Source: Acidobacteriota bacterium (GTDB lineage: Bacteria; Acidobacteriota; Vicinamibacteria; Marinacidobacterales; Marinacidobacteraceae). Taken from it: a stretch of 64,000 bases of DNA. Every line of letters starts with the position of its first letter. The first letter of the stretch is position 1. The notes under the pieces are model-generated. The model was not told the origin of the DNA and did no database searches. It was given only the letters and a program-made list of their open reading frames with translations. Shown in pieces: positions 3,447-33,087 of this stretch. Location: the NCBI GenBank assembly GCA_022822745.1, contig JAJEAO010000006.1:9509-73508 (forward strand), in the 5' to 3' direction. The translations under genes were made by a program, and so were the position numbers.

Positions 3447-3785
3447 CTCTCTTCTGCGACTTCGTCGGGGGCGTTGGCGGACAGGAACCTCGAGATCGAG
3501 CCGGGGCCGGAGGGGCGCCGGGCGGCTCACTCTCGATGGTACCCGGCCCGCCCCCGGTCACCGGTGCGCCCGGAGGAGCGACGGGCTCCGCCATCTCTCC
3601 CGGCAGGGGCCCGGCGCGGGCGGCGCGAACGAACCCCGCCTCCCGGAAATCGAACCTCGAAAGAGCGGTGCCTCACCGGAACGCGACGGAGCGCCGCCGG
3701 GGCCGCGAATCGCCGCGCTGGGGGGCGGCGCTCCCCGCCAGAGAACCGAGCGCGACGGATGGCCCCGTCCCTAGACTCCCGCCCC

Positions 3786-6700
3786 ATGACCAGCGCGCGG
3801 ACGGCCTTCCGGCAGGCGCTCTCCGAGCGGATCGTCGTCTTCGACGGCGCCGGCGGGACGATGCTGCAGTCGCTCCATCTCGACGAAGCCGGATTCCGCG
3901 GCGAGCGGCTCGCGGACCACCCGGAGCCGCTCTCCGGACTCCACGACGCGCTGTGCCTCACCCGCCCCGAACTCGTGGAACGGGTCCACCGCGACTACCT
4001 CGCCGCCGGCGCCGAAGCGCTCACCACGAACACGTTCAACGCGAACGCGGTCTCGCTGGCCGACTACGGCGCCTCGCACCTCGCCTTCGAGATGAACCGG
4101 GAGGGCGCCCGGGCGGCGCGGCGGGCCGTCGAAGCCTTCGCGCCGGACCGCCGGGTGTTCGTGCTCGGTTCGATCGGCCCGACGAACCGCACTCTCGGCA
4201 TCTCGCCCCGGGTCGAGGATCCCGGGTACCGCGCGGTCTCGTGGGAAGCGCTCCGCTCCGCCTACCTGGAGCAGGCGCGGGGGCTCCTCGCCGGGGGGGC
4301 CGACCTGCTGCTGGTCGAGACCTGCTTCGACACGCTGAACGCCAAGGCGGCGCTCGACGCCTGCCGGGAAGCGCTGGACGAGGTGGACGCGGGCTCCGGC
4401 CTGATCGTCTCGTTCACCGCGGTGGATCGAGGAGGACGGAACCTGACCGGCCAGGACTCCGAGGCCTTCTGGATCTCGGTGGCCCACGCCGGGGTCACCG
4501 CCGCCGGCGTGAACTGTTCCTTCGGGGCCGAGACGATGCGCCCGTTCGTGGAGCGGCTCGCCGCCTGCGCCCCGGTTCCGGTCGGAGCGGTCCCCAACGC
4601 GGGGCTCCCGAACGACCTCGGCGAGTACGACGAGACCCCGGCCACGACTGCCGAGGCCCTTGCCGAGCTCGCGGACAGCGGACTCCTGAACTTCACCGGC
4701 GGCTGCTGCGGCACGACGCCCGATCACATCGCCGCCGTCCGCGCCGCCGTCCGCGGAGCGGCGCCTCGGCGACTCCCGGAGCCTCGCGCCGGGCTCCGCC
4801 TCGCGGGGACCGATCCCCTGGTGCGGCCGGAGCGGGCGTTCCTCGTCGTCGGCGAGCGGACGAACGTCACCGGAAGCCGCCGATTCGCCCGGCTCATCCG
4901 CCGCCGGAAGTTCGAGGCCGCCGCCCGGGTGGCCCGCGGCCAGGTCCGCGGCGGCGCGAACCTCCTCGACGTGAACATGGACGCAGCGCTCCTGGACTCC
5001 GCCTCCCGCATGCGCCGCTTCCTCCGGTTTCTGGCGATGGAGCCCGACATCGCGCGCCTTCCGATCCTGGTGGACAGCTCGAAGCTGGAGGTGATCGAGA
5101 CCGGGCTCCGCTGCCTCCCGGGAAAAGGCGTCGTGAACTCGCTCTCGCTGAAGGACGGGGAGTCCGCGTTCCTCGAAGCCGCCCGGCGGGTGCGGCGCTA
5201 CGGGGCGGCGATCGTGGTGATGGCCTTCGACGAGGTCGGCCAGGCGGTGGACGCCGACCGCAAGACCGCCATCTGCCTCCGCGCCTACCGGCTCCTGACC
5301 GGCATCGACGTCCCTCCCGAGGACATCGTGTTCGATCCGAACGTCCTCGCGGTGGCCACCGGGATGGCGGAGCACGACCGATACGCGGTGGAGTTCCTCG
5401 AGGCCCTGCCCCGGATCGCGGCCGCCTGCCCCGGCGCCCTCCTCTCCGGCGGAATCTCGAACCTCTCGTTCGCCTTCCGCGGCCACGAGACGGTGCGGGG
5501 AGCGATGAACGCGGTGTTCCTGCACCACGCCATCGCCGCCGGACTCGACATGGCCATCGTGAACGCCGGGCGCCTGCCGGTCGTGGACGACATCCCGGCG
5601 GAGCTGCGGGAACGGGTGGAGGACGTGATCTTCGCGAGGCGGCCGGACGCCACCGCGCGGCTCGTGGCGCTCGCCTCCCGCACCGGTCGTCGCGCCGGCG
5701 CCCGGCGGGCGAAGGAGACCTGGCGCGGTCTCCCGGTGGGTGAGCGGCTCGCCCACGCCGTGATCCACGGCATCCTCGACCACGTCGGAGAGGACGCGAT
5801 CGAGGCCATCGGCGCGGAGGGCTCGGCGCTCTCCGTGATCGAGGGTCCGCTCATGGACGGGATGCGCGTCGTCGGAGACCGCTTCGGCGACGGGCGCATG
5901 TTTCTGCCCCAGGTCGTCAAGAGCGCCCGGGTGATGAAGCGCGCGGTGGCCCGGCTCCGTCCGCACATGGAGACCGGCGAGCGAGCCGCCGCCCGCCGGC
6001 CCCGGATCGTGCTGGCCACGGTCCGGGGGGACGTGCATGACATCGGCAAGAGCATCGTCGGCATCGTGCTCGCCTGCAGCGGATACGAAGTGGAGGATCT
6101 CGGCGTCATGGTCCCCGCCGACGGGATCCTCGCCGCGGCGGAAGCCGGCGACGCGGCTCTCGTCGGGCTCTCCGGGCTGATCACCCCGTCGCTCGACGAG
6201 ATGGAGCGGTTCGCGGTCGAAATGGAGCGCCGCGGCGACTCCCGACCGCTGCTGATCGGAGGCGCCACCACCTCGGCGCGGCACACGGCGCTCCGGATCG
6301 CTCCCCGCCGTTCCGGGCCGGTCGTCCACGTGCGCGACGCCTCCCGGGCGACCGGCGTGGCGCGGTCCCTCCTCGGGGCGGACCGCGAGAGCTACCTCGC
6401 CGCGGTGCGCGAGCGGCAGGCGCGGGAGCGGGGTCGAAGGGCCGGCCGGGGGCGCCGCCGGCTGCTCCCGCTCGAGGAGGCCCGCCGCCGGGCGCCGAGG
6501 TTCTCTCGGGCGAAGGACGTGCGCGCCAGCTTCCTCGGAGTCCGCCTCCTGCCCGACGTCCCCCTCCGGGAACTGCTCCCGTTCGTGGACTGGACCCCGT
6601 TCTTCCACGCCTGGCAGTTCCGGGGAACCTGGCCGGGGCTCCTCGATCACCCCGAGGCCGGACCCCCGGCGCGGGAGCTCCTCGAAGCCGCCCGCGCCCG

Positions 6701-7421
6701 CGCCGAGTCGCTGGCGGAGACGCGGGCGATCCGCGCCGCGGGGGCCTACGGCTTCTTCCCCGCGGCCCGCGAAGGCGACGACCTCCTCCTGTGGGAGGAC
6801 GGGGACGCCCGGGGCTCTCCGCGCTTCCGCATCCCCACGCTGCGGCAGCAGGAGGACCGCCCCGGCCCGCGTCTCGCCGCGGCGGATTTCGTGGCGCCGG
6901 CGAACGCGGACGGCCCGGAGGATGTGGTCGGGCTCTTCTGCGTCACCGCCGGGCTGGGCCTCCGCGCCGCGGTGGCGGCGGCCGAGCGCCGCGAGGACGA
7001 CTACGAGGCGCTCCTGCTCCGCTCGCTCGCCGACCGCCTCGCCGAAGCCTTCGCCGAGAGACTCCACCAGCGGGCGCGGCGCGATCTCGGCTACGGAGCG
7101 GCGGAGGATCTCTCCCCCCGGGAACTCCTCCGGGGCCGCTACCGCGGGATCCGCCCGGCCCCGGGCTACCCGGCGACGCCCGATCTCTCGATTCTGCAGC
7201 CGGTCTTCGAAGCGCTCGGCGCGGAGGCGGCGCTCGGGGTCCGCCTCACCGAGTCCTTCGCCATCGAGCCCGCAGCCTCGGTCGCCGGGCTCTACTTCGG
7301 GAGCGCCGAGGCCCGGTATTTCTCCGTGGGGAGGATCGGCCGCGACCAGCTCGAGGACTACGCCGGCCGGCGGCAGATCCCGATGGAGCGCGCCGAAGCG
7401 CTCCTCCGCCGCGTGCTCTGA
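3786..7421 (+). CDS. metH: Cobalamin-dependent methionine synthase
   Basis: Full four-module architecture at 1211 aa: homocysteine S-methyltransferase (IVVFDGAGGTMLQS), pterin-binding, B12-binding (GDVHDIGKSIVGIVL) and the AdoMet activation domain. The ATG at 3786 is in frame with the long ORF, whose 5' extension I reject. Confidence 0.95.
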   Translation: MTSARTAFRQALSERIVVFDGAGGTMLQSLHLDEAGFRGERLADHPEPLSGLHDALCLTRPELVERVHRDYLAAGAEALTTNTFNANAVSLADYGASHLAFEMNREGARAARRAVEAFAPDRRVFVLGSIGPTNRTLGISPRVEDPGYRAVSWEALRSAYLEQARGLLAGGADLLLVETCFDTLNAKAALDACREALDEVDAGSGLIVSFTAVDRGGRNLTGQDSEAFWISVAHAGVTAAGVNCSFGAETMRPFVERLAACAPVPVGAVPNAGLPNDLGEYDETPATTAEALAELADSGLLNFTGGCCGTTPDHIAAVRAAVRGAAPRRLPEPRAGLRLAGTDPLVRPERAFLVVGERTNVTGSRRFARLIRRRKFEAAARVARGQVRGGANLLDVNMDAALLDSASRMRRFLRFLAMEPDIARLPILVDSSKLEVIETGLRCLPGKGVVNSLSLKDGESAFLEAARRVRRYGAAIVVMAFDEVGQAVDADRKTAICLRAYRLLTGIDVPPEDIVFDPNVLAVATGMAEHDRYAVEFLEALPRIAAACPGALLSGGISNLSFAFRGHETVRGAMNAVFLHHAIAAGLDMAIVNAGRLPVVDDIPAELRERVEDVIFARRPDATARLVALASRTGRRAGARRAKETWRGLPVGERLAHAVIHGILDHVGEDAIEAIGAEGSALSVIEGPLMDGMRVVGDRFGDGRMFLPQVVKSARVMKRAVARLRPHMETGERAAARRPRIVLATVRGDVHDIGKSIVGIVLACSGYEVEDLGVMVPADGILAAAEAGDAALVGLSGLITPSLDEMERFAVEMERRGDSRPLLIGGATTSARHTALRIAPRRSGPVVHVRDASRATGVARSLLGADRESYLAAVRERQARERGRRAGRGRRRLLPLEEARRRAPRFSRAKDVRASFLGVRLLPDVPLRELLPFVDWTPFFHAWQFRGTWPGLLDHPEAGPPARELLEAARARAESLAETRAIRAAGAYGFFPAAREGDDLLLWEDGDARGSPRFRIPTLRQQEDRPGPRLAAADFVAPANADGPEDVVGLFCVTAGLGLRAAVAAAERREDDYEALLLRSLADRLAEAFAERLHQRARRDLGYGAAEDLSPRELLRGRYRGIRPAPGYPATPDLSILQPVFEALGAEAALGVRLTESFAIEPAASVAGLYFGSAEARYFSVGRIGRDQLEDYAGRRQIPMERAEALLRRVL

Positions 7422-7910: not shown

Positions 7911-8504
7911 TCACGCTCCGTTCGCGTCCCGCAGGATCCCCGCCGGACACGAGACGCCGGTCCGGACGATCCCGCAGTAGCCCCCCGGATTCTTCGCCAG
8001 GTACTGCTGGTGGTACTCCTCGGCGTAGTAGAACGGCTGTTCCCGGCGGATCTCGGTCGTGACCTCCGGGAACCCGGCGGCGGCGAAACGAACCCCGTAG
8101 GCCTCCTTCGCCGCGACCGCCGCCCGGAACTGGGCGTCGTCCGCCGGGTAGATCGTGGAGCGGTACTGCGTGCCCACATCGTTCCCCTGACGCATGCCCT
8201 GGGTCGGGTCGTGGTTCTCCCAGAACACCCGCAGCAGCTCGCCGAACGAAACCCGGTCCGGCCGGAACACGACCCGAACGACTTCGGCGTGCCCGGTCCG
8301 ACCGCTGCAGACTTCCCGGTAGGTCGGGTTCCGGGTGATTCCGCCCGCATACCCGACCGCGGTGCTGTACACCCCCGGCAGCTTCCAGAAGAGCCGTTCG
8401 GCGCCCCAGAAACACCCCATCCCGACGAGAGTCTCCGCCGTCCCCTCGGGCCACGGGGGGGTCAGCGGCGCGTCGAGCACGAAATGGCGGCGGGGCACCC
8501 GCAT
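7911..8504 (-). CDS. msrA: Peptide methionine sulfoxide reductase A
   Basis: 197 aa with [28 protein letters not shown] and EYHQQYL signatures. The ATG at 8502-8504 was located by counting back from the stop. Confidence 0.9.
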
Positions 8505-8705
8505 GGCTTTCACCCGGTGCGGCAGGGCGGTGGCCGGGGAGGGCAGCGTGGAGGGACGGGCGAAGGGAATCACGGCGGCCGGGCAGTCTATCCGGGGTCG
8601 GCGACGGCTCCTCCCGCCCGCGCGGACGCCGTTCGACGGGACCGTCCTCGCCGGCGCGCGCCGGCGCCCGGATCCGGCGCGCTCCCGGACGCCCAGTACA
8701 AGCGG

Positions 8706-8802
8706 CGGCGACGGCCAGGAGGAATCCCGGACCGCACCGGCGACAGCCAGGAGGAATCCCGTACCGCGCCGGCGACCGCCAGGGGAAATCCCCGGACCGT
8801 GC
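8706..8802. repeat. Three perfect-tandem copies of a 32-33 bp unit (cggcgacRgccaggRgaatcccSgaccgYRc) in the msrA/ALDH divergent intergenic region
   Basis: Read directly: copies at 8706-8737, 8738-8769 and 8770-8802, followed immediately by TATACT (8805-8810) and the GTG start of the ALDH gene at 8821. Confidence 0.85.
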
Positions 8803-8804
8803 CT

Positions 8805-8810
8805 ATACTC
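8805..8810 (+). promoter_or_regulatory. Candidate -10 element (TATACT) 10 nt upstream of the ALDH GTG start; possible leaderless or short-leader transcript
   Basis: This is the only AT-rich hexamer in a >70% GC intergenic region, positioned directly after the iteron array. Confidence 0.35.
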
Positions 8811-8820
8811 GCCCCCGCCA

Positions 8821-10197
8821 GTGGGAGAGAGCCCGGAACGAGCCGTCGCCCGCGCTCGACGGCTCGCATCGTCGGGCGCCCCCGCCTCCCGCGCGTTCCG
8901 GCGCCGCGCGCTCGGCTCGCTCCAGCGCCTCCTCGTCTCCAGGCGTTCGGCGTGGGAGGCGGCGCTCGCCGAGGATCTGGGCGTCCCCCCCTTCGAGGCG
9001 TGGGCGGCGCAGACGGGCGTGGTCCTCCAGGAAATCCGCCACGCCCGACGAAGGCTCCGGGGCTGGATGCGACCCGAGCGGGTCGGCTCTCCCCTCGCGC
9101 TCCTCCCGTCGCGGAGCCGGATCGAGCCCGCGCCGCTCGGGGTCGTGCTCGTCATCGCTCCCTGGAACTACCCGCTGCAGTTGAGCCTCGCCCCGGCGGT
9201 CGCGGCGCTGGCGGCGGGGAACACCGTCGTCCTGAAGCCCTCGGAGCACGCCCCGGCGACGGCGGCGCTCCTCGCCGAACTCCTCCCGGCGGCGCTCCCC
9301 GAGGGCCTCGTGGAAGTGGTTCCCGGAGGTCCGGATGTCGGGGCGGCCCTCGGCGGTTCCGGTGCGTTCGATCACATTCTCTTCACCGGCAGCCGCGGCG
9401 TGGGGGCGAGAGTGGCCGAGGCCGCCGGACGCACCCTGACCCCCGTCACCCTCGAGCTGGGAGGCAAGTGCCCAGTCCTCCTCGACAAGACTGCGAGCCT
9501 GCGGGTCGCGGCCCGGCGCATTGCCTGGGGAAAGTTCCTGAACGCCGGACAGACCTGCGTCGCCCCCGACTTCGCCCTCGTTCCGTCGAACCGCGCCGAG
9601 CGGTTCCACCGGGAGCTCGGCCGCGCCCTGGACCGGTTCTACGGACCCGACCCCGAGCAGAGCCCCGACTACGCCCGCATCGCGCACCGGGCGCACTTCG
9701 ACCGGCTCGCCCGGCTGCTCGAGGGCCTCCCGATCCGGCGCGGCGGAACCCGCGACCGGGAAACGCTCTACTTCGCGCCGACCGTGACCGGCCCCTGGCC
9801 CGACGGCCACGCCGCGGGCCGGGAGGAGATCTTCGGGCCCATTCTCCCGGTCCTTCCGTACGACACCCTCGATCAGGCGATCACCCTCGCCGCCGAACTG
9901 CCCCCTCCGCTCGCGCTCCACATCTTCACCCGTCGGCGACGGGTCGCGCGACGGGTCGCGGCGGCGGTGCGCTCCGGCGCCGTCCTCGTGAACGACGCCG
10001 TGCTCCACTGCGCGAACCCGGCGCTCCCGTTCGGCGGCGTCGGGGCGAGCGGGTATGGGGCGTACCACGGCGTCCACGGGTTCGACCGGCTCTCCCAGCC
10101 GCGCGCCTGGCTGACCTCCCTGCCCTGGTTCGACATCCCGCTCCGCTACCCGCCCTACCGGGGCAAACTGCCCATCCTCCGCCGGATCCTTCGTTGA
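8821..10197 (+). CDS. Class 3 (fatty/aromatic) aldehyde dehydrogenase
   Basis: 458 aa with LELGGKCP and [11 protein letters not shown] (catalytic Cys), plus [12 protein letters not shown]. The GTG at 8821 gives the class-3 N-terminus ([17 protein letters not shown]...). Its stop overlaps the start of the next gene (TGATG). Confidence 0.85.
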
Positions 10198-12614
10198 TGA
10201 CCTCGAACCCCGCACTCGCCCTCCTCGATCCGGTGTCCGGCCGGCCGCCGCTGAAGCCGCCGGAGGCCGCCCGCATCGCGGCGGAGATCTGGGGCCTCGA
10301 AGCGGACGCATCGCCGCTGCCGGGCGAGCGCGACGCGAACTTCCTCCTGACCTCCCGCTCGGGCGAGCGGTTCGTGCTCAAGGTCTCGGGCGCCGCCGAA
10401 GTCCCGGAGCGGGTCGAACTCCAGACCGCGATGCCGGCGCACATCCGGAAACGCGACCCCCGCCTCCGGACGCCGCGCGCCGTCCCCGCCCGAACCGGAT
10501 CCCCGGGCCCGAACGGGATCGCTGCATGCCGCATTCGGGGCCGAAGCCACGCGGCCCGGCTCCTCGTCCACCAGGACGGCGTGCCCCTCTCGGCCTTCCC
10601 TTCCCCCGCCCCGGCGATTCTCGATGCCGTCGGAAGTTTCGCGGGGCGGCTCCAGCGGACCCTCGCCGACTTCGATCATCCCGGCCTCCGCGCCCGGGAC
10701 CTGCCGTGGGCGCCGCAGCACGGGGCGCGGGTGATCTCCGCCGCAACGGGGCGAATCGAGGGCCCGGCGCGGCGAGCTCTCCACGCCCGGACGGCGGATT
10801 CCGTCCTGCCGCGGCTGCCGGCCCTGCTCGCTCTGCCGCAGGCCCCCCTCCACAACGACCTGAACGACGACAACCTGCTCCTCGCCGCCGGCGCGCCGGA
10901 GAGCGCGGGCCCCGAGGATCTGGCCGTTCTGGATTTCGGCGACGCCCTCGAGGGACCGGCGGTCGTCGAGGTCGCGACCGCGGCGCTCTATGCGGCGGGG
11001 GCCTCCGACGAGCCCCTGGCGGCGGCCGCCGCGGTCCTCGCCGGATTCGTCCGGGAGCGGCCGCTCTCGCGGGCGGAAGCGGGCGCCTTCCGCACCGCCC
11101 TCGCGCTCCGGGCGCTGGTGAGCGGGGGCATCGCCGCCATCCGACGGGCCGAGGTGCCGGGCGCCGCCGCCGACCCCTACCTGATGACCAGCGAGGCCGC
11201 CGTGTGGCGCGTGCTGGCGGCCCTCGATCGGGAATCGGCGCGCGAGTCCGGGGCCCGCTTCCTCGAGGCCGCCGGTCTCGCTCCTCCCGGCGCAGCTCGA
11301 GCCGGAGGCGACGACCCGAGGCGCCTCCTCGCCCGCCGGCGTCGCTGGTTCAGCCGCGCCCTGAGCATCTCCTACGACGATCCGATCCCGGTCGTCCGGG
11401 GCGCGGGCGCCCGGCTCCACGACCCCGACGGACGAAGCTACCTCGACATGGTGAACAACGTCTGCCATGTCGGGCACGCCCACCCCCGGGTCGCGGGGGC
11501 GATCGCCCGGCAGGCGGCGCGCGTCAACACGAACACGCGCTTCCTCTACCGGGAGCTCACCGATTACGCCGAGCGCCTCCTCGCCACGCTGCCGGACCCG
11601 CTCGAAGTCGTCTTCTTCACGAACTCGGGGAGCGAGTCGAACGACCTCGCGCTCCGGATCGCGAGAAACCGGCTGGGACGCTCCGCCACGCTCGTCTTCG
11701 ACGGCGCCTACCACGGCAACCTCACCTCCCTCATCGAGATCAGTCCCTACAAGCTGGATGGCCCCGGGGGCCGGCCCGGTCCGCCGTGGCTGCACCGTCT
11801 GCCGCTGCCCGACGGGTTCCGGGGACGATTCCGAGCGGAGGCGCCCGACTTTCCCGACGCGATGATCGCGGACGCTCGCCGGCGGGTGGCGGCCGCGGGC
11901 CCGGCCACTCTCGTCTCGGAGGCGATCCTCGGCTGCGGGGGGCAGGTCGTGCCTCCGCCGGGCTACCTGCGGGCGCTCTACCGGGCGGTCCGGGACGGGG
12001 GCGGGCTCATCGTCGCCGACGAGGTCCAGACCGGTTTCGGACGGGTGGGGCCCGCGTTCTGGGCCTTCGTCGAGGCGCAGCGCGGACCCGAAGCCGCCGA
12101 GCCCCCCGTGGTCCCGGACATCGTGACCCTGGGCAAACCCGCCGGAAACGGCCATCCGCTCGGGGCCGTGGTCACGACCCGCGAGCTCGCGAACTCGTTC
12201 GAGACCGGGATGGAGTACTTCAACACCTACGGCGGCAACCCGGTCTCCTGCGCCGCCGGACTCGCGGTCCTCGACGTCATCGAGAGCGAGGACCTGGCGG
12301 CCCACGCGGAACGGGTCGGCAACCGGCTGCTCGACGGCCTGAACCGGCTCGCGAACCGGTACCCTCTCATCGGAGAAGCGCGCGGGCGCGGTCTGTTCCT
12401 CGGCTTCGAGCTGGTGCGGGATCCCGAGACCCGCGCTCCCGCGACCGCGGAGGCGCGACGGCTGGTGAACCGCCTCCGCCAGGCGCGCATCCTGAACAGC
12501 ACCGACGGCCCCGACGCGAACGTCATCAAGATCAAGCCGCCGCTTCCGTTCTCGGCGGCGGACGCGGACCACTACCTGGAAGTCCTCGATCGAACGCTGA
12601 GTACCCCCGAATGA
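10197..12614 (+). CDS. Bifunctional fusion: N-terminal APH-fold (hydroxylysine-kinase/HYKK-like) amino-alcohol kinase plus C-terminal class-III aminotransferase-fold phospho-lyase (AGXT2L/ETNPPL-like)
   Basis: N-domain has [19 protein letters not shown] and VLDFGDA (APH/HYKK motifs). C-domain has [16 protein letters not shown]...[47 protein letters not shown] and [12 protein letters not shown], nearly colinear with eukaryotic phospho-lyases as I remember them. 805 aa; the ATG shares its A with the upstream TGA. Confidence 0.9.
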
Positions 12615-13312
12615 GCCCGACCCGGACCCTGCCCCGCTGGAGCCTGGTCGAGGTTCCGCCCCCCGGCGCGCATCGGACGACGATCGTCTGGCTCCACGGG
12701 CTCGGCGCCGACGGCCGGGACTTCGCTCCGGTCATCCCGGCGCTGCGGCTGCCGCGCCCCCTCGGGGTCCGGTTCCTGTTCCCGGAGGCGCCCATCCGTC
12801 CGGTCACCCTGAACGGCGGGATGGCGATGCGCGCCTGGTACGACATCGGCTCCATCACCGACTCCCGTGAACTGAACCGGGACCAGCTCGACGAGTCCGT
12901 CTCCGGGGTGCGGGCGCTCCTCGCCGCCGAACAAGAGCGCGGGATCCCGCCCGAGCGTCAGCTCCTCGTGGGCTTCTCGCAGGGGGGCGCGGTCGCGCTG
13001 AGCGCCGCCACCGCACGGGGGCCGGACGGATCCCCGCCTCCCCCGATCGGGGGGCTGGCTGCGCTCTCGACCTACCTGCCGCAGCCGGAGCGGCTCGTTC
13101 CCGGGGGGCGGGCGCCGATCTTCCTCGCCCACGGCTACTACGACGAAACGGTCCCGTTCCAGGCGGGAGCCAGGACCCGGGACGCCCTGGTGGCGGCCGG
13201 GTGGACCACGGACTTCCACGGCTACGCGATGGGCCACGCGGTGTGCGAAGAAGAGATCCGGGCGCTGGGCGCCTTCTTTCGGCAGGCGCTCGGCGGCGAG
13301 GCCGAATCGTGA
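12611..13312 (+). CDS. Alpha/beta-hydrolase carboxylesterase/phospholipase family (Abhydrolase_2-like)
   Basis: GFSQGG nucleophile elbow, downstream D and H (HGYAMGHAV), about 233 aa. ATGA overlap with the previous stop. Confidence 0.8.
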   Translation: MSPTRTLPRWSLVEVPPPGAHRTTIVWLHGLGADGRDFAPVIPALRLPRPLGVRFLFPEAPIRPVTLNGGMAMRAWYDIGSITDSRELNRDQLDESVSGVRALLAAEQERGIPPERQLLVGFSQGGAVALSAATARGPDGSPPPPIGGLAALSTYLPQPERLVPGGRAPIFLAHGYYDETVPFQAGARTRDALVAAGWTTDFHGYAMGHAVCEEEIRALGAFFRQALGGEAES

Positions 13313-14328
13313 CCGGCCCCGAACCGGTCACCCTGGTCACCGGCTCCGCGGGCGAGATCGGGGCCAACCTGGTGCGGGAGCTCGTCCGCCGGGGCGACCG
13401 GGTCGTCACGGTGGACCTCCGACCCGGCCGAGAGGGATCGGGCGCCCTCGCTCACTTCGCCGGGGACATCACCGATCCGGCGCTCTGGAACGCGTTCGGG
13501 GCCCGCTACCTCCCCCGGACGACGTTCCACCTGGCCGCGGTGCTCTCCACCCACGCCGAGCGGAGCCCCACGCTCGCGCACCGGGTGAACATCGAGGGAA
13601 CGGCCCGGCTGCTGCGCCTCGCTCGCGACGCCGGATCGGCCGCGAACCCGGCGCGGTTCCTGTTTCCCAGCTCGATCGCCGTGTACGGCTTCCCGTCCCG
13701 ATCGCGGAAGGCGGCCGCGGGCAACGTGCGGGAAGACGAGCACCTCGATCCGGCCACGCTCTACGGACAGCAGAAGCTCTACATCGAGCGGCTCGGCGCC
13801 GCCCTCGAACGGGAGCGTCCGGGGCTCGATTTCCGAGCGGTCCGGTTCCCCGGGCTGATCTCCTGCGACACCGTGCCCCAGGGCGGCACGAGCGACTGGG
13901 CGCCGGAACTCCTCCACGCCGCCGCCCGCGGCGAGCCCTGCGCGTTCTTCGTCCGGGGCGACGCGCGGCTCCCGTTCTGCGCCATGCCGGACGCCGTCCG
14001 CGGCCTTCTCCAGCTCGCGGGCAGCGACCGGGCGAACCTGCGCCGGACCGCCTACAACCTGGGCGGATCCAGTTTCTCCGCCGATGAAGTCATTGCGCGC
14101 GTCCGGAGGGACTTCCCCGATGTCCGGGTTCACCGCGCGCTCGACGAGGAGCGGGACCGGATCGTTGCGAGCTGGCCGGGCGCGGTGGACGACGGCGCCG
14201 CGCGCCGCGACTTCGGCTGGGCGCCCGCCCACGACCGGGAGACCCTGTTCTCCCGCTACCTGATTCCCGGCATCCGGGCCCGCTACCGGCGGACTCGGGA
14301 CGAGCCGTCCGTCGCGGAGGTCCGATGA
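13309..14328 (+). CDS. Extended-SDR NAD-dependent epimerase/dehydratase-fold enzyme, L-threonine 3-dehydrogenase (TDH)-like
   Basis: TLVTGSAGEIG Rossmann motif. SSIAVYG, FPGLISCDTVPQGGTSDWAPELL, YNLGGSSFSADEV and ASWPGAVDDGAARRDFGW each match remembered signatures of SDR-type TDH. GTGA overlap with the previous stop. Confidence 0.75.
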   Translation: MTGPEPVTLVTGSAGEIGANLVRELVRRGDRVVTVDLRPGREGSGALAHFAGDITDPALWNAFGARYLPRTTFHLAAVLSTHAERSPTLAHRVNIEGTARLLRLARDAGSAANPARFLFPSSIAVYGFPSRSRKAAAGNVREDEHLDPATLYGQQKLYIERLGAALERERPGLDFRAVRFPGLISCDTVPQGGTSDWAPELLHAAARGEPCAFFVRGDARLPFCAMPDAVRGLLQLAGSDRANLRRTAYNLGGSSFSADEVIARVRRDFPDVRVHRALDEERDRIVASWPGAVDDGAARRDFGWAPAHDRETLFSRYLIPGIRARYRRTRDEPSVAEVR

Positions 14329-15092
14329 CGATGCAGCGCCCCGTTCCTTCCCCCCTGTGGCCCGGCCTCGCGGCCCCGCTGCTGTCGGCCGCTCTCGGAG
14401 CGGTCACCTACATCGGGCTCACGCGGCTCAGCCCGGACCCCGATCAGGACTATCTCCTCCGCCTCTCGGTGGTCGCGCTCGTCATGCTCGCGCCCCCGGT
14501 GTGGGCGCTGCGGCGCTTCGTCCTCGCCCGGCGCGCCGGAGCGCTCACGGCCGGCGGCTGGGCGGGCGCGGGAGTCGCGCTGCTGTCGCTGGGCCTCGTG
14601 GCCGCCCCCATCGGCGGCGCGCTCCGCCGCGCCCGCCAGGCGGCGAACCTCGCGCTCGAAGGGGTTCCGGCCCCTGAGTTCCGCGCCGCCGACCTCGACG
14701 GCAACGTCCACCGGCTCTCCGACCACGCCGGATCCGTCGTCCTCGTGAACATCTGGGCCACCTGGTGCCCGCCCTGCCGGGCCGAGATGCCCGAACTGGA
14801 CCGCCTCGCGAAGGAGCGGGCGGAACAGGGCTTCGCGGTCTTCGGGGTCTCCACCGAGGACGCCGCCACCCAGGAAGCCTTCCGCCGGGAGATGGTGTCG
14901 GTGGACTATCCGCTGCTCCTCCCCGACGCGCTCGCGGACGGCGTCATGCCGGACATCTTCACCGAGACCGCCCGCTACCCGGCGAACTTCCTGATCGACC
15001 GGGACGGACTCCTCCACCCGGCGCCGAGCACGGATCAGCCATTCTCGGCGCTCGAAGCGGCAGTGGACCGGCTCCTGGAAGACATCCGTTAG
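14325..15092 (+). CDS. Membrane-anchored TlpA/ResA-type thiol:disulfide oxidoreductase
   Basis: WATWCPPC motif in a thioredoxin fold, with an N-terminal TM segment. ATGA overlap with the TDH-like gene. Confidence 0.8.
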   Translation: MTMQRPVPSPLWPGLAAPLLSAALGAVTYIGLTRLSPDPDQDYLLRLSVVALVMLAPPVWALRRFVLARRAGALTAGGWAGAGVALLSLGLVAAPIGGALRRARQAANLALEGVPAPEFRAADLDGNVHRLSDHAGSVVLVNIWATWCPPCRAEMPELDRLAKERAEQGFAVFGVSTEDAATQEAFRREMVSVDYPLLLPDALADGVMPDIFTETARYPANFLIDRDGLLHPAPSTDQPFSALEAAVDRLLEDIR

Positions 15093-15120: not shown

Positions 15121-16575
15121 ATGAAGAACATCCTCCGGATTGCCCGGCGGCAGATCCACTCCATCCTCGAGACGCGCTCCACGATCCTCCTTCTGGTTCT
15201 CGTCGCCGCTCTCGGCATCGTCTCCGGCCTCGGCGCCCGCCACCACGCCGTCCGGGAAGCGGAGGCGCGGCTCGAACAGCAGTCCCTGGTGGAGCGCCAG
15301 TGGCTGGAGCAGCCGGGCCGTCATCCGCACCGGGTGATCCACTACGGGTTCCTGCTCTTCCGCGAAGAAGCGCCCCTCGCCTTCTTCGACCCCGGAGTCA
15401 GTCCCTGGGCCGGGACCGCGCTCTACCTCGAAGGGCACCGCCAGAACTCCGCCAGTTTCGGTGACGCGCGCCACGCGACCAGCGCGGCGAGCTTCGGACG
15501 GCTCACGCCGGCTGCCGTGCTCGGGCTCCTCGCGCCGCTGCTCATCATCGTCGCCGGGTTCGCCTCGGTGAGCGGCGAGCGGGAGCAGGGCACGCTGCCG
15601 CTGCTCCTGGCGCAGGGCGCGACCCCGGGGCAGATCGTGGCGGGGAAGTCGCTGGGCATCGGCGCGGCCGCAGCCGCCGCCGCGCTTCCCGTCGGGCTGG
15701 TGACCGCCGCCTTCATGGCGTTCGGTGGCGCAGAAGCGCCCTCGTGGCTCCGGGTCGGGGCGCTCGTCGCCACCTATGGCGCCTACCTGGCTGGGTGGGT
15801 GCTGGTCACGGTCTGGATCTCCTCGCGCCGGAAGTCCTCGGGCGCCGCTCTCGCCCACCTCGTCGCGCTGTGGGTCGTCCTGGGCGTCGGCGCGCCTCGC
15901 CTCGCCGCTTCCGTGGCGGCGGGACTCCATCCAGAGCCCTCGCGCGCCGAGCTCACGGCGCAGGTGCAGGCGGCGGAACGGCAAGTCGGCGAGAGCCACA
16001 ACCCCGACGACCCCTTCTTCGCCGCGCTGCGCGACGAGTACCTGACGCGCTACCAGGTGTCCTCGGTGGAGGAGCTTCCGGTCAACTGGCGAGGCCTGGT
16101 CAGCCGCGAGGGGGAGGCGGCAACGAGCCGCATCCACGAGGAGCACCAGCTCGAACTGCTGGGTGTTCACCAGCGTCAGAACCGCGTCATCGGATGGTTC
16201 GGGCTGCTCGCGCCGCACCTGGCGATGCGGGATCTCTCCATGTCGGCGGCGGGCACCGGACCCGAGGCAGTGGAGGCATTCCGGGCGCAGGCCGAAGCGC
16301 ACCGTTACGACCGCATCCAGCGCCTCAACGACCTCCACATCCACCAGATCCATCTCGAGAACGACCGCGCGCAGCGGCTGTCGCGGGAGGAGTGGGAGCG
16401 GTTTCCGGAGTTTCGGCTGGAACCGCCTTCGCTGCGTCAGGCCCTCGCGGACCGCCCGCAGGCGCTGGCCGGACTGGGGCTGTGGATGCTGGTCCCCTTG
16501 CTGGGGCTGGCGCTCGGTCGCGAACGGCTCTCGCGCGTGAGCGAGCCGGCGTCGAGAAAGGAGCCGGCGGCATGA
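15121..16575 (+). CDS. ABC-2-type transporter permease-like membrane protein (DUF3526-like)
   Basis: 484 aa with an N-terminal TM, a central 4-5 TM block and a C-terminal TM; the architecture recalls the paired DUF3526 permeases. No ATPase gene is adjacent. Confidence 0.55.
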   Translation: MKNILRIARRQIHSILETRSTILLLVLVAALGIVSGLGARHHAVREAEARLEQQSLVERQWLEQPGRHPHRVIHYGFLLFREEAPLAFFDPGVSPWAGTALYLEGHRQNSASFGDARHATSAASFGRLTPAAVLGLLAPLLIIVAGFASVSGEREQGTLPLLLAQGATPGQIVAGKSLGIGAAAAAAALPVGLVTAAFMAFGGAEAPSWLRVGALVATYGAYLAGWVLVTVWISSRRKSSGAALAHLVALWVVLGVGAPRLAASVAAGLHPEPSRAELTAQVQAAERQVGESHNPDDPFFAALRDEYLTRYQVSSVEELPVNWRGLVSREGEAATSRIHEEHQLELLGVHQRQNRVIGWFGLLAPHLAMRDLSMSAAGTGPEAVEAFRAQAEAHRYDRIQRLNDLHIHQIHLENDRAQRLSREEWERFPEFRLEPPSLRQALADRPQALAGLGLWMLVPLLGLALGRERLSRVSEPASRKEPAA

Positions 16576-18017
16576 GATCCACGCGGTGGCGACTGCTCCG
16601 GCTGGAATGGGCCCGGATGTTCCGTTCGGGCGGCTCCACGGTCGCGGCGTGCCTGGTGATCGCCCTCGGGGCGTACGCCGCCTGGGAGGGACGGCAGCGA
16701 CTCGGAGCGGTCGAAGCGAGCGCCGCAGCGGCCGAGGAAGGCTACCGGAGCCAGCTCGAATTTCTCGTCGGGCGCTATCCCCCGACGACGGAAGCCGGCG
16801 AGCTGCTGTACTACCTGACGTTTCCGGCTTCGCAGCCACCATCCCGTCTCTCGGGACTCGCGAGCGGGAGGGAGGCCGTCGAGACGGCGAATCTCCGGAT
16901 CCGGTTGCTCGCGCTCGAAGGGCAGCTCTACGAGCAGGAGACGCTCAATCCGCGTCTCGCCGCCGCCGGGAGGCTCGACCTCGGCTTCGTGCTGCTCGCG
17001 CTGCTGCCGCTTCTCATCATCGCCATCACCTACGATCTCGTCTCCGGGGAGCGCGAGCGCGGGACATGGCGGCTGGCGCAGCTCTTCGTCCCGTCGAGTC
17101 GGCTCGTGGGGGTGAAGACCGGCGCCCGGATCCTCGTGGTGGCAGGTCTCGTCGTTTCGCTGCTCGCGATCGGGGCGCTTGCCACCGGACTCGACGGGGA
17201 CGGGCGCCCCGGCTGGGCTGCGGCTCTCGTCGTCCTGCACACGGCGTTCTGGTTCGCTCTGTGTCTGGCGGTCGCCACGGGTCGCCGCTCATCCACGGCC
17301 AACGCGATGGTGCTGGTCGGCGCCTGGGTGGCGCTCACCTTCCTGGCGCCAGCGGTGCTGAGCCTCATGAACACGATCCTCCACCCGGCGCCGGAAGCTC
17401 TCGATCTGACCGTCCGCCAGCGACAGGGCTACCACGAAGCCTGGGATCTCCCTCGGGAGGAAACGATGGAGGAGTTCTTCGAGGACTACCCCGAGTGGAG
17501 CGACTGGATCGTCCCGCAGGATCGGTTCACCTGGGCCTGGTACTACGCGATGAATCACCGGGGGGATCAGGCCGCCCGCGAGACCTCACGCGCCTACCGG
17601 GATGTGCTCGCCCGCCGGGATGCCTGGGCCGGGCGGTGGTCCCTCCTCGTCCCGCCTCTCGCGGCCCGGATCGCCCTCGACCGGCTGGCGTCGAGCGACC
17701 TGGAAGCTCAGCTCGCTTACCAGGAGGCGGTCCGCAGCTATCACGAGCGGCTCAAGACGCACTTCCAGCCGATCCTGTTCGCGGAGACGCCGCACCCCGA
17801 AGTGGACTGGAGCCGAGTGCCGATCTTCGAACCCGCCGCTCCGGTGGAAGCGCCTGCCGCCGCAGGGCTCCCGGCCGCCGCCTCGCTGGCGCTCGCCTCG
17901 CTGCTGGCCCTCTGGGGCGCTCGTGGCCGCCGAGCGCTCTCGTTCAGCGCTCTCCGCCGAGGAAGCCGAACGCCATCACCGCCGGCACCGCGATTCCGTT
18001 CAGCGTCGCCGGGCTGA
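16572..18017 (+). CDS. Second DUF3526-like ABC-2 permease-like membrane protein
   Basis: Paralogous architecture to the previous gene with an ATGA overlap. The 3' end may be shorter than the ORF (convergent overlap with the TPR gene). Confidence 0.55.
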   Translation: MRSTRWRLLRLEWARMFRSGGSTVAACLVIALGAYAAWEGRQRLGAVEASAAAAEEGYRSQLEFLVGRYPPTTEAGELLYYLTFPASQPPSRLSGLASGREAVETANLRIRLLALEGQLYEQETLNPRLAAAGRLDLGFVLLALLPLLIIAITYDLVSGERERGTWRLAQLFVPSSRLVGVKTGARILVVAGLVVSLLAIGALATGLDGDGRPGWAAALVVLHTAFWFALCLAVATGRRSSTANAMVLVGAWVALTFLAPAVLSLMNTILHPAPEALDLTVRQRQGYHEAWDLPREETMEEFFEDYPEWSDWIVPQDRFTWAWYYAMNHRGDQAARETSRAYRDVLARRDAWAGRWSLLVPPLAARIALDRLASSDLEAQLAYQEAVRSYHERLKTHFQPILFAETPHPEVDWSRVPIFEPAAPVEAPAAAGLPAAASLALASLLALWGARGRRALSFSALRRGSRTPSPPAPRFRSASPG

Positions 18018-27760: not shown

Positions 27761-30700
27761 TCAGAAGGGGGATCGCCGGAATCCCTCGACGAAGAGGGTG
27801 ATCGGCTCGAGCGCGCTGTCCCGGATCCGGAACCGGAAGTCGCCGATGACCGTGTCCAGGACCCCGCCGGCGGCCTCGGTGACGCTGAGCGCCATGTTGC
27901 CGGTGGACGAGAGGGAAACGCCCCGGATGCGGCTTGGTCCGAAGTCCACGAACGGGGCGTCGTCGGCCACGACTCCGGCGAGGGGTTCGCCGCTGACCCC
28001 GTCGAACGCCCGCAGCCGGGAAACGCCGACCTCGGTGCGCACGCCGCCGCATCCGATCGAGGATGACGAGGCGGTCGTCAGTGTCGGGAGCACGACCTCG
28101 ACCCCGAAGTTGTCGGCTCGGACCACCGGCCGCCCCTGGGGCGCCTCTTCGGCGGGAAGCGGCTTCCGCCAGACCTCCTCCATCCGGTCCCCCAGATCCC
28201 GCAGGAGCACCATGTGAGCCGGGCCGCCCGGCAGCCGGCGGTCGCCGCCGGTCACGACCAGCAGGTGCGGCTCGGCGCGTCCCGGAAACGGAAACGCCAC
28301 CGGGCGGGCGTGGACCGGGTGGCGTCCGCCGAGGCGATGGACGGTCCGCAGTTCGAGGGCGCCGGGGCTGCCGGTCGGGCGTAGCCGGTGGATCTGCCCG
28401 TGGAGGTCGGCGACATAGACGGCGCTCACGTGATCCGGAGCCGCGCGCGAGGCCCAGCGAGGGCTCCAGGGCGCCGGCGCCGTCGGCGCTCCGTTTCGCG
28501 GGATCGCGGCGTCCGGGGCCGAGGGGAGGTGGAACGCGCGGCGGAGCCGGCCGTCCGCCGGCTCGAGGACGAACAGCGAGGCGCCGGCGCTCCCGGCCCC
28601 GTCGCCGCTGCTCTGGAACACGAGCCACTCGGCGCCGAATCCGGGCGAGACCTCGGCGAAGACGGGCGCCGGCGTCTCCCGCAGGCCGGCGAACCCCGGC
28701 GCCTCCGGACCCATGCTCCACAGCAGGCGCGGCCGCTTCGCTCCCGCCGGCCACCGCGACGGGGGCTCACGGTCCCCGCTCCAGGCGCCACCGATGGCAG
28801 TCACGTCCAGCGCGGTCACGAAACGCCCGCCGAACGAGCGGCCGAACGCGAGGACCGTCGCCCACTCGCCCCCTGCGAGCGGCAGATCCCGAACGACGGG
28901 CGAGCCGGCCAGGCTGAAGCGGCTCTCCAGCCCCCGGCGCAGCCCCGGCGCGCCGCGGACGCGGGCGAGAGCCAGATCGCGCAGGAACGGGCCTGCCCCG
29001 GAGTCGCCCGGGAGCGGCCCCAGGGCGTCGGCGGGGATGAAGGCGAACGCCTCGGCGCCGGTCTCCGCCGAGAAGGCGTGGAGCATGCCCCCGTTCGCGG
29101 GCAGATAGACCATGGTCCGGCGGTTCACCTGCGCGTGGAAGAACCGTTCCCACGCCGGTCCCGCGCCCGTCCGCGACGGCGGCGCCCCGACGACCACCGG
29201 CGAGGCCAGGCTCTCCCGGAGTTTCGGGCTTCCCGCGCCGCCCACGAAGTGGAGTCCGCCGTCGGACCCGTAGATCGAGCCGGTCTCGGGATGGACTTCG
29301 ATCTCCTCGCCGCGGATCAGGCGGACGACGATCTCGGCGGCATCGGCAGCGGATCGCGCCCCTGCGCCGTCGAGCGCATCGAGGTAGCCCGCGCCGACGC
29401 CGAGATCCTCGGGACGCACCTCGGCCACGGTGAACGGCCGCAGCCGGGTCTCGCCGCGGCGATGGAACCAGATGAGCCGATCCTCGGGATCGCGCGCCGC
29501 GAGAAGAGCCCCCGCGTCCCAGACCGGAGCCCCGGAGACGTCCCCCTCCTCCGAGACCGGGACGGCCCGAACTGTCGCCTGGAGACCGCGGAGATCGGCT
29601 TCCGTCGTGACCAGCACGTTGTCCTGGTGCTCCCGGCGCCGCGCCAGGACTTCGTTCAGCGCGGCCGGGTCGTTCGGATCGGCGACGAAGTCGCGCCGGC
29701 GCCCACCGTTCACATCCCCACCAGTCAACTCCCCACCGGCCAACTCCTTGACGGCCGCGAGTCGGGGTTCCGCCAGCTTCACCGACCCGTCAGGCAGCGT
29801 GACCTCGGAGAGCACGGCGCTGATGGCCGACCGGAGCCCCTCGCGGTCGGCGGCGTGGATCGCCGGCCGCTCCAGGTCGGACGCCATCCAGGCCAGGTGA
29901 TTCGTCAGCCCCCGGCTGAACTCCGCCTCCATGGCGAACCCCACGATGTGGATTTCCCCGAATCCGTTGGCCGGATCGCCGCGATTGAGGCGAAGCATCG
30001 CGTCCCTCGCCTTGAGGCCGGCGTTGTGCGCCTGCATAACGCGTGTCCGCGCACTGCCCTCGATCCCGTGCTGTTCGACGAGAGTCGGCGCCGTTCCCAG
30101 AACCCGGAGCTCCACCGGTCGCCTTCTCAGCACTCCAGGGGAACCCGCGGTGAAGTCGTTCCAGATCCGTTTGCCGCACTCGCAGGAGTCCACGCCGTCC
30201 GTCAGGAACAGCACGATGTTCCGCTGCCCGGGCGCCAGGTCCTCGGTCGCCTCGTTCGCGATGTAGCTCGCAAGCTGAAGCAGGGCGATGCCCGCCGGCG
30301 TGTGGGTGGAGTTCGCTTCCCAGGGAAGCCTCCGGAGAATGGCGCTGCGCTGCGCGACGAAGTTGCACCCCGCGGGCCTGGCGAGAAGCGACAGTCCGCC
30401 GCACTGGATCATCGAGGTCGCGGGCGGTCCGCTCGGAGAGAGGGACGGGACTCCCGCCCCGAAGTAGGGATCCCGGCACACGCCTTCGGACCGGTTCTGC
30501 AAATCGAAGTCGCGAAACCGCGCCAGTCCCCACGCAACGAGGGGGTCGCCTGCATCGGAGACGAACGTGGAAGCGGCCCAGCGGATCACCTCGCGCGCCT
30601 CATGCAGCCGCGTCCGCCGCCGGCCGCCCGCGCGACGGTCCATCGAGGTCGAGGTGTCGAGGAGCACCCACACCCGGGGCGGGACCAGGGTGCGAACGAG

Positions 30701-30856
30701 ACCGAGCGGGTCACGGCCCCGCGACGAGCCGTCGAGGATGCGGTCCACCGACCGGCTGGCGGGAGCGGGGGCCGCCGGTCCGGATGCGGAGGCGAAGAGC
30801 AGGAGAGAAGCCGCGGCCAGGAAGAGGGCGCGGCGGGCGGCGGATGTGGAATTCAC
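27761..30856 (-). CDS. pilY1: PilY1-like type IV pilus tip adhesin/biogenesis protein with an N-terminal vWA domain
   Basis: vWA MIDAS-like VWVLLDTSTSM...LFLTDG, and the PilY1 C-terminal propeller signature RTMVYLPANGGMLHAFSAETGAEAFAFIP. The GTG start at 30856 follows a GGAGG 9 nt upstream and gives a signal peptide; the R-rich ORF extension is rejected. Confidence 0.8.
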   Translation of the reverse strand: MNSTSAARRALFLAAASLLLFASASGPAAPAPASRSVDRILDGSSRGRDPLGLVRTLVPPRVWVLLDTSTSMDRRAGGRRRTRLHEAREVIRWAASTFVSDAGDPLVAWGLARFRDFDLQNRSEGVCRDPYFGAGVPSLSPSGPPATSMIQCGGLSLLARPAGCNFVAQRSAILRRLPWEANSTHTPAGIALLQLASYIANEATEDLAPGQRNIVLFLTDGVDSCECGKRIWNDFTAGSPGVLRRRPVELRVLGTAPTLVEQHGIEGSARTRVMQAHNAGLKARDAMLRLNRGDPANGFGEIHIVGFAMEAEFSRGLTNHLAWMASDLERPAIHAADREGLRSAISAVLSEVTLPDGSVKLAEPRLAAVKELAGGELTGGDVNGGRRRDFVADPNDPAALNEVLARRREHQDNVLVTTEADLRGLQATVRAVPVSEEGDVSGAPVWDAGALLAARDPEDRLIWFHRRGETRLRPFTVAEVRPEDLGVGAGYLDALDGAGARSAADAAEIVVRLIRGEEIEVHPETGSIYGSDGGLHFVGGAGSPKLRESLASPVVVGAPPSRTGAGPAWERFFHAQVNRRTMVYLPANGGMLHAFSAETGAEAFAFIPADALGPLPGDSGAGPFLRDLALARVRGAPGLRRGLESRFSLAGSPVVRDLPLAGGEWATVLAFGRSFGGRFVTALDVTAIGGAWSGDREPPSRWPAGAKRPRLLWSMGPEAPGFAGLRETPAPVFAEVSPGFGAEWLVFQSSGDGAGSAGASLFVLEPADGRLRRAFHLPSAPDAAIPRNGAPTAPAPWSPRWASRAAPDHVSAVYVADLHGQIHRLRPTGSPGALELRTVHRLGGRHPVHARPVAFPFPGRAEPHLLVVTGGDRRLPGGPAHMVLLRDLGDRMEEVWRKPLPAEEAPQGRPVVRADNFGVEVVLPTLTTASSSSIGCGGVRTEVGVSRLRAFDGVSGEPLAGVVADDAPFVDFGPSRIRGVSLSSTGNMALSVTEAAGGVLDTVIGDFRFRIRDSALEPITLFVEGFRRSPF

Positions 30857-30930
30857 GGTGCGGTTCCTCCGTTGGTCAGGTCGGGTCGGGAAGCCGGGTC
30901 GAGAGGCGGCGGCGGATCGGCGGGGGGTCT

Positions 30931-32188: not shown

Positions 32189-32220
32189 TTCGGAATGTCC
32201 TCCTCAGCCCGATCCCCAAC

Positions 32221-32275
32221 GGGAAAACGGGGTCCATCCGCCCGTTTTCGGGGCGCGGTGTCGAAAACTCGGGGC
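32221..32275. promoter_or_regulatory. Alternating inverted-repeat element (GGGAAAACGGGG-n8-CCCGTTTTCGGGG-n6-GTCGAAAACTCGGGG) in the 5' region of the minor-pilin operon; a near-identical element precedes pilM
   Basis: Read directly; compare 50211-50260. The half-sites CCCGTTTTCG and CGAAAAC(N)CGGG are reverse complements. Confidence 0.6.
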
Positions 32276-33058: not shown

Positions 33059-33087
33059 GCTGCGACTCCGTCCGGCGCCCGCCCGCC

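Follow-up and report, generated by a model that had tools for sequence, protein, structure and literature searches.

A diverged relative of GalE-fold L-threonine 3-dehydrogenases beside a kinase/phospho-lyase fusion in an Acidobacteriota bacterium

The 64,000-nucleotide stretch analyzed here (hereafter the window; positions 9,509–73,508 of contig JAJEAO010000006.1, assembly GCA_022822745.1, from an Acidobacteriota bacterium of the family Marinacidobacteraceae) carries at 13309–14328 a gene whose product, by every test applied, is a member of the clade of L-threonine 3-dehydrogenases (TDHs) of the short-chain dehydrogenase/reductase (SDR) type. A preliminary description of this DNA had already called the product a TDH-like extended SDR, and sequence, predicted fold, and phylogeny all agree. 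We tentatively propose, at a rough probability of 45%, that the enzyme uses NAD+ to oxidize L-threonine or a closely similar compound, after which decarboxylation of the product would give an amino-ketone feeding an amino-alcohol route.

13309..14328, + strand: focal gene; 339-aa extended SDR of the GalE-like L-threonine 3-dehydrogenase clade (translation, phmmer, AF2/Foldseek, neighbor-joining (NJ) tree, residue table)

The focal gene is confirmed as real and correctly delimited, and an independent public gene call (ENA, on a 139-kb metagenome scaffold carrying the sequence) gives the identical 339-aa product. Its frame has a G+C content at third codon positions (GC3) of 0.89–0.93 and is the sole plus-strand coding frame from ~13300 to 14300 in a third-position GC plot; long spurious open reading frames (ORFs) are common in the window due to its G+C content of 73%. 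The start codon is a GTG that overlaps the stop codon of the upstream esterase gene as GTGA, and the stop codon shares ATGA with the ATG of the downstream redoxin gene.

When the protein was compared to the PDB using phmmer, the best 18 distinct sequences were all SDR-type TDHs (E-values of 7e-48 to 4e-31), comprising those of C. necator, T. volcanium, mouse, T. brucei, T. cruzi, P. infestans, C. difficile, and F. frigidimaris, along with engineered consensus TDHs. These were followed by MoeE5 (1e-12) and then GalE (~1e-5), with bit scores of 112–167 for the TDHs and at most 51 for all other proteins. Consistent with this, when the protein was modelled with AlphaFold2 from 78 homologues (mean pLDDT 94.2), the top 50 Foldseek matches of the model in the PDB were all TDH chains, with query TM-scores of 0.75–0.85. 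At the domain level, the protein matches Pfam Epimerase (E 1.9e-31) and also GDP_Man_Dehyd, which are generic domains only, and no NCBIfam model passed its cut-off: the best match was DenD (D-erythronate dehydrogenase, NF043036) at 104 bits vs. a cut-off of 325, and GalE (52 vs. 262), heptose epimerase (43 vs. 275), and dTDP-glucose dehydratase (23 vs. 365) were likewise below theirs.

Phylogenetic placement was computed with NJ, a distance method only, using E. coli GalE as the root and 100 bootstraps. The tree was anchored with the PDB entries 7EPR and 7CGV, which are engineered consensus TDHs and not natural enzymes, and with natural TDHs of Ralstonia, Cupriavidus, Deinococcus, and Methylocystis encoded beside kbl or a kbl-like gene (plasmid/chromid records). 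The subfamily to which the focal protein belongs was monophyletic in 99 of 100 replicates and the canonical clade of kbl-linked and PDB sequences in all 100; the branching order of the subfamily, the canonical group, and a further group of homologues (g50, described below) was recovered in only 23–31 of 100. GalE formed a distant outgroup, with the subfamily lying inside the TDH lineages, including kbl-linked genes. The preliminary description had named phylogeny against GalE as a check on its assignment, and the protein groups with the kbl-linked and solved TDHs rather than with the epimerases. We regard it as most improbable that the protein is a sugar-nucleotide epimerase or dehydratase, as the generic database label would have it: while the two Pfam domains fit such an enzyme and public records call relatives 'NAD-dependent epimerase/dehydratase family protein', the GalE and dTDP-glucose dehydratase scores lie far under their cut-offs, GalE structures match at 1e-5 vs. 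1e-48 for TDHs, the tree puts GalE far outside the TDHs, and glycan or nucleotide-sugar genes are absent nearby.

The N-terminal Rossmann motif (GxxGxxG) reads GSAGEIG at residues 12–18, and an acidic residue, D36, lies at the end of beta-2; G12, G15, G18, and D36 are invariant over all 53 aligned sequences, GalE among them. An aspartate ending beta-2 is typical of NAD users, not NADP users, and the Rossmann motif together with D36 suggests an NAD-type enzyme. The catalytic set of S122 (within PSSIAVYG), Y152, and K156, the latter two forming the YxxxK motif, is invariant in the alignment. Segments specific to TDHs are also present, namely S80 (in the LAAxLS segment), P181-G-L-I-S185, G192-G-T-S-D196, and W289-P290 (SWP). 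Residues invariant across all TDH groups are retained in the focal protein, including S80, S121-S122, R176, R179, P181-G-L-x-S185, G192-G-T194, D196, W289-P290, Y152, K156, G12/G15/G18, and D36. Ser195 of the GGTSD loop is common to the focal protein and the g50 group, kbl-linked members included, where canonical enzymes have GGTTD. In the TvTDH and CnTDH complexes, the GGT(S/T)D loop and S80 presumably hold the amino-acid head group. TDHs oxidize the beta-hydroxyl of threonine via the conserved tyrosine, with a threonine or serine assisting (Thr130 and Tyr155 in TcTDH; PMC11910319).

Two of the motifs quoted in the preliminary description are present as written, SSIAVYG at residues 121–127 and YN(L)GG(S/M)SF in the form YNLGGSSF at residues 249–256. 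The pattern PGLIS...PGGGT(S/T)D was right in PGLIS and GGTSD and wrong in the lead-in to the loop, which is actually P-Q-G-G-T-S-D (PGLISCDTVPQGGTSD). Similarly, the overall motif SWP..IDD..AR.DWGW was recovered as SWPGAVDDGAARRDFGW, with VDD for IDD and DFGW for DWGW.

The homologues of the focal protein fall into two tiers. The first (P0002–P0079) is a tight set at 58–88% identity, found in metagenomes and metagenome-assembled genomes labelled Acidobacteriota or Vicinamibacteria. The second, g50, begins with a step down to ~50% identity and is a very large group distributed across Acidobacteriota, Chloroflexota, Planctomycetota, Myxococcota, and others; at least 120 homologues with ≥79% identity to a Vicinamibacteria g50 query were present among the matches listed. 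Mean identities within and between the groups were as follows:

Within the subfamily: 68%
Within g50 (across phyla): 62%
Subfamily vs. g50: 49%
Subfamily vs. canonical clade: 36%
g50 vs. canonical clade: 37%

Given these values, the divergence between the subfamily and g50 exceeds that of g50 between phyla (49% vs. 62%). The kbl gene is adjacent in 5 of 77 g50 loci (L032, L034, L035, L068, and L070; targeted tblastn), on which ground the g50 proteins are plausibly true TDHs. When the neighbors of 80 related loci were clustered, the g50 loci showed no partner in common, and a kinase/lyase was found within 10 kb of none of its 77 loci. The group (L004–L080) lacks a characterized or solved member, and JGI often labels its proteins 'threonine 3-dehydrogenase'.

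At the following positions, the subfamily has a constant residue that other TDHs do not share:

W60: Leu in other TDHs
R68-P69: Glu-Ile in other TDHs
R100: Asn in other TDHs
Q155: Asn/Ser in other TDHs
L173: Val in other TDHs
W197, directly after the GGTSD loop: Tyr/Phe in other TDHs
C224: Met in other TDHs
G232: Ala in other TDHs
F302: Trp in other TDHs
L313: Ala/Met in other TDHs

The Nakano/Ito group has defined TDH sequence libraries by Val143, Leu174, Tyr188, and Met214 of CnTDH, the curated sets carrying V-L-Y-M or I-I-Y-M at these positions (PMC12798769), which define sub-libraries and not the TDH family. The four positions map to L151, L183, W197, and F223 in the focal protein and to M, L, Y/F, and F in g50, and the change from Tyr to Trp at CnTDH position 188 is unique to the subfamily. 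As judged by these sequence comparisons, the focal subfamily is an uncharacterized, lineage-restricted, and diverged branch within the TDH clade.

The genes surrounding the focal gene, on which the proposed route depends, are the following:

7911..8504, − strand: methionine sulfoxide reductase MsrA, divergent, with a GCFWG motif; upstream bound of the operon (translation; PMSR in the same place in relatives)
8821..10197, + strand: class-3 aldehyde dehydrogenase (ALDH), 458 aa, likely start GTG at 8821 (Pfam Aldedh, 2.6e-84)
10197..12614, + strand: kinase/phospho-lyase fusion, 805 aa (Pfam APH, 2.9e-16; Aminotran_3, 4e-71)
12611..13312, + strand: carboxylesterase/lysophospholipase-type alpha/beta hydrolase, 233 aa (Pfam Abhydrolase_2, 3.4e-36)
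14325..15092, + strand: TlpA/ResA-like thiol:disulfide oxidoreductase (redoxin), membrane-anchored, WCPPC (Pfam AhpC-TSA/Redoxin; NCBIfam TlpA, 4e-19, below cut-off)
15121–16575 and 16572–18017, + strand: two ABC-2/DUF3526 permease genes (Pfam)

The junctions in the order ALDH, fusion, esterase, SDR, and redoxin overlap by 1, 4, 4, and 4 nt, and these five genes are predicted to form a translationally coupled, co-transcribed chain. The preliminary description had set the focal gene in an amino-alcohol operon, and this setting was borne out by the adjacent APH-kinase/phospho-lyase fusion, the ALDH upstream, and the junctions overlapping by 1–4 nt; the label is justified for the kinase/lyase/ALDH part. 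The fusion consists of an APH-fold kinase (residues 39–281) and a phospho-lyase of the class-III-aminotransferase fold (residues ~376–803). In the PDB, the lyase domain best matches human ethanolamine-phosphate phospho-lyase (ETNPPL, 6TOR; 4e-126, 425 bits) and an Arthrobacter phospholyase (5G4I; 3e-89), with the next matches (205 bits or fewer) being ordinary class-III aminotransferases and racemases. The kinase domain alone had no matches in the PDB with phmmer, and the full fusion scored 777 bits against NCBIfam PRK06148, below the cut-off. In the window fusion (805 aa) and the similar protein of L081 (809 aa), no Peptidase_M23 domain separates the APH part from the aminotransferase-fold part; most same-operon relatives are 972–1070 aa in length and possess this domain, as in the PRK06148 architecture.

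As for the other members of the chain, the mechanical ORF of the ALDH (8335–10197, 620 aa) is over-extended by ~160 codons across the divergent msrA, a shadow ORF of the type seen at 73% GC, and the N-terminus from 8821 aligns with homologues of 424–481 aa; the best PDB matches are of the ALDH3A1/fatty-aldehyde dehydrogenase type (~350 bits). The esterase has an intact GFSQG nucleophile motif, along with Asp and His candidates, and best matches P. aeruginosa PA3859 (6e-44), P. fluorescens carboxylesterase II, and APT1/2 in the PDB. The ABC-2/DUF3526 permease genes, located between the redoxin and a TPR gene, have no adjacent ATPase gene and are missing from the otherwise syntenic loci L002, L003, L081, L083, and L092–L094; the pair looks like a local insertion.

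Searches of the 64-kb window found no kbl, second TDH, or classical SDR, and no kbl homologue was found in any subfamily locus. Within the block itself, no dedicated amino-ketone reductase (a classical SDR in known examples) was found, the TDH-like gene being the only non-ALDH dehydrogenase. A promoter/terminator scan gave results at chance level, and Rfam gave no matches. Elsewhere in the window are type IV pilus/type II secretion genes (27761–38482 and 45589–50188; PilY1-like, prepilin peptidase, T2SSF, T2SSE, secretin, and PilM) and housekeeping genes (MetH, 3759–7421; CTP synthase, 38716–40353; FolD; biotin carboxylase; an aconitase-family protein, 52879–54276; and a homocitrate-synthase-like protein, 55388–56566), which do not bear on the finding.

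The gene order is kept in the subfamily. Nine distinct loci were available (the window, L001–L003, L081, L083, and L092–L094; L082 duplicates L081), and in all nine the SDR gene comes after those for ALDH, fusion, and esterase, in that order; the redoxin is next in all eight that extend further, as L001 ends ~100 bp past the SDR. Despite this constant block, the SDRs of these loci share just 58–88% identity. The surrounding 17-kb neighborhood is also syntenic in the lineage, with MetH and MsrA upstream and TPR, HEAT, S41 peptidase, and TatC genes downstream. In a second lineage of 61% G+C, genes for Exo_endo_phos, ALDH, fusion, and esterase occur in a row (L098, 4764–14672; L102, 6738–17076; L103, 6810–12683), and two of these three loci contain a TDH homologue and an AbgT-family transporter 1.8–2.5 kb downstream. 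The TDH copy of L098 is of the g50 type: it shares 47% identity with the focal protein and 58% with a Vicinamibacteria g50 protein. The combination of Exo_endo_phos (EEP phosphoesterase family), lysophospholipase-like esterase, and ETNPPL-like lyase hints at the catabolism of phospholipid head groups (phosphoethanolamine).

In Proteobacteria, a classical SDR directly precedes the kinase and lyase in Rahnella and S. meliloti, and a deacetylase-family gene precedes them in Bosea. These pairs (L089, 5217–8264; L091, 3522–7230; L090, 4877–8254) each have an ABC transporter, the Bosea gene being of the histone-deacetylase family, and look like a family of modular, uncharacterized amino-alcohol catabolic clusters. 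The Rahnella and Sinorhizobium dehydrogenases are classical SDRs of ~245 aa unrelated to the TDH clade, and that of Rahnella has as its sole PDB match an unnamed structural-genomics protein. A dehydrogenase beside an amino-alcohol kinase/lyase is a recurrent theme, given that Proteobacterial and Acidobacteriota loci both have one; a TDH-type dehydrogenase in this position is specific to these Acidobacteriota lineages. Another non-standard TDH context was noted on a Methylocystis heyeri plasmid (L085, 1–6483), where genes for an ALDH, DUF1338, a canonical-type TDH, a KBL-like aminotransferase, and a cystathionine gamma-synthase-family protein are found.

In the reaction that we favor, Tyr152 would deprotonate the beta-hydroxyl of L-threonine or a closely related 2-amino-3-hydroxy compound and a hydride would pass to NAD+, yielding a 2-amino-3-oxo acid that would decarboxylate to an amino-ketone. 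Such losses of CO2 are known: where KBL or CoA is in short supply, 2-amino-3-ketobutyrate is decarboxylated, leaving aminoacetone (PMC9814548), and L-phenylserine dehydrogenase likewise yields 2-aminoacetophenone and CO2 (PMC2963168). The amino-ketone would then be converted to an amino alcohol, perhaps by an unlinked reductase or by the focal enzyme in reverse; the RMM locus of Rhodococcus/Mycobacterium has a short-chain dehydrogenase that works in both directions between amino-2-propanol and aminoacetone (PMC4207490). Finally, the kinase domain of the fusion would phosphorylate the amino alcohol, an aldehyde would result as the phospho-lyase domain splits off phosphate and ammonia, the reaction of ETNPPL-type lyases on O-phospho-amino alcohols (PMC8154272), and the class-3 ALDH would oxidize the aldehyde to an acid.

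This reading is supported by the TDH placement, the ETNPPL-type/APH fusion as a neighbor with the ALDH upstream, the coupled junctions, the constancy of the block in nine of nine loci, and the absence of kbl in 64 kb, and further by the second (61% GC) lineage with its nearby TDH homologue and by the Proteobacterial pairs with an adjacent dehydrogenase. Several points weigh against it. The characterized TDHs are only ~36% identical, the nearer g50 group is itself uncharacterized, and the subfamily-specific changes include W197 at a library-defining position (Tyr188 of CnTDH). The block encodes no enzyme assigned to the reduction of amino-ketone to amino alcohol, and the esterase and redoxin are unexplained by the proposed route. 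As the chain includes a periplasmic redoxin without an obvious role, shared transcription here guarantees no shared pathway, and as the whole 17-kb region is syntenic, the conserved order may reflect common descent and not function. Other, more distant fusion homologues stand alone, with none of the TDH, ALDH, and esterase genes around them. Class-3 ALDHs usually act on medium/long-chain or aromatic aldehydes, which points to aldehydes larger than propanal or acetaldehyde.

Part of this evidence would suit other functions. Were the focal enzyme an amino-ketone reductase or amino-alcohol dehydrogenase (e.g., converting aminoacetone to 1-aminopropan-2-ol), it would supply the kinase substrate and with it the pathway's one missing step. 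The SDR oxidoreductases that directly precede the kinase and phospho-lyase in Rahnella and Sinorhizobium and the amino-2-propanol/aminoacetone enzyme of the RMM locus (PMC4207490) are in line with this, as are the divergence of the subfamily from g50, greater than that of g50 across phyla (49% vs. 62%), and the changes W197, C224, and Q155 beside the substrate loop. We nevertheless consider it unlikely, as the Rahnella and Sinorhizobium enzymes belong to the unrelated ~245-aa classical SDRs, the Asp36 signature suggests NAD and not the NADPH typical of reductive steps, and the residues shared by TDHs are all kept, among them S80 and those of the GGT(S/T)D loop, where changes would be expected had carboxylate recognition been lost. 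An ordinary housekeeping TDH that merely sits in the operon, with KBL encoded elsewhere to give glycine and acetyl-CoA and with no tie to the kinase/lyase, strikes us as about equally unlikely: tight 4-nt overlaps occur at both ends of the focal gene, the subfamily is specifically diverged and confined to loci having the block, and in the second lineage a TDH is also found near the ALDH-fusion-esterase trio. Such an enzyme would, on the other hand, agree with the unchanged catalytic residues, the unrelated redoxin in the operon, the synteny of the entire region by descent in the lineage, and the fact that most of the 77 g50 loci have neither kbl within 10 kb nor a conserved neighbor.

Oxidation, decarboxylation, and reduction in one site is established chemistry among extended SDRs (UXS/ArnA), and a redox-neutral, UXS-like threonine decarboxylase would oxidize the C3 hydroxyl, lose CO2 in the site, and return the hydride to give 1-aminopropan-2-ol for the kinase. 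This would account for the absence of a separate reductase and kbl from the block and for the coupling of a TDH-type enzyme to a kinase needing an amino alcohol, and the subfamily-specific substitutions do adjoin the substrate loop. Yet the nearest sequence relatives are ordinary TDHs, the changes are few, and we know of no TDH relative that is a redox-neutral decarboxylase, so that we hold this to be very unlikely.

TDHs of the GalE-like fold are normally paired with KBL to produce glycine and acetyl-CoA, and to our knowledge, an amino-alcohol kinase/lyase operon context has not been described for them. If the favored oxidation of threonine or an analogue is correct, the locus would tie genes to the old biochemical route by which threonine becomes propionate via aminoacetone and aminopropanol; the alternative would be a TDH relative with a shifted substrate. 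A redox-neutral decarboxylase would instead imply a KBL-independent route from threonine via propanal to propionate within one operon. The analysis also flags the large g50 group, spread over several phyla, as having no characterized member. Practical value is modest, the protein being a well-defined candidate for enzyme assays from an uncultured soil/marine lineage.

Among known systems, the focal protein is closest to the GalE-like TDHs (EC 1.1.1.103; CnTDH, 3WMX; TvTDH, 3A9W; and the mouse and trypanosome enzymes), with which it shares the fold (TM 0.75–0.85), the NAD motif, the Ser/Thr-Tyr-Lys catalytic residues, the GGT(T/S)D loop, the SWP motif, and its length. It differs from these in its ~36% identity and its own clade, in having GGTSDW vs. 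GGTTDY as well as Q155, C224, G232, and F302, and in reading L-L-W-F vs. V-L-Y-M at CnTDH positions 143/174/188/214. The focal gene does not adjoin kbl; tdh-kbl operons are typical (PMC9814548), although not obligatory, for TDHs.

With respect to the pathway, the RMM locus (Mycobacterium/Rhodococcus) and the classical amino-alcohol route through the O-phosphate to the aldehyde likewise bring together a kinase, a class-III-fold phospho-lyase, an ALDH, and a dehydrogenase working between amino-ketone and amino alcohol (PMC4207490). The dehydrogenase there is a classical SDR, whereas the focal operon has an extended SDR of the TDH clade and a fused kinase and lyase; its block is without shell proteins, a permease, or a GntR regulator and has an esterase and redoxin in addition. 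The resemblance to animal ETNPPL/AGXT2L1 and the hydroxylysine kinase/phosphohydroxylysine phospho-lyase system concerns the neighboring fusion, whose C-terminal domain is closest to human ETNPPL, and not the focal gene. We know of no TDH-type partner for these animal enzymes. The kinase and lyase pairing in the neighbor is as for the animal ETNPPL and hydroxylysine enzymes (cited in PMC8154272). The L-phenylserine dehydrogenase of P. syringae uses NAD+ to oxidize a 2-amino-3-hydroxy acid at its beta-hydroxyl, and the product then loses CO2 spontaneously to leave an amino-ketone (PMC2963168). This enzyme is a classical SDR with no sequence relationship to the TDH clade. It sets a precedent for substrates beyond threonine, and such substrates would suit an ALDH of the aromatic/medium-chain type, as found in the operon.

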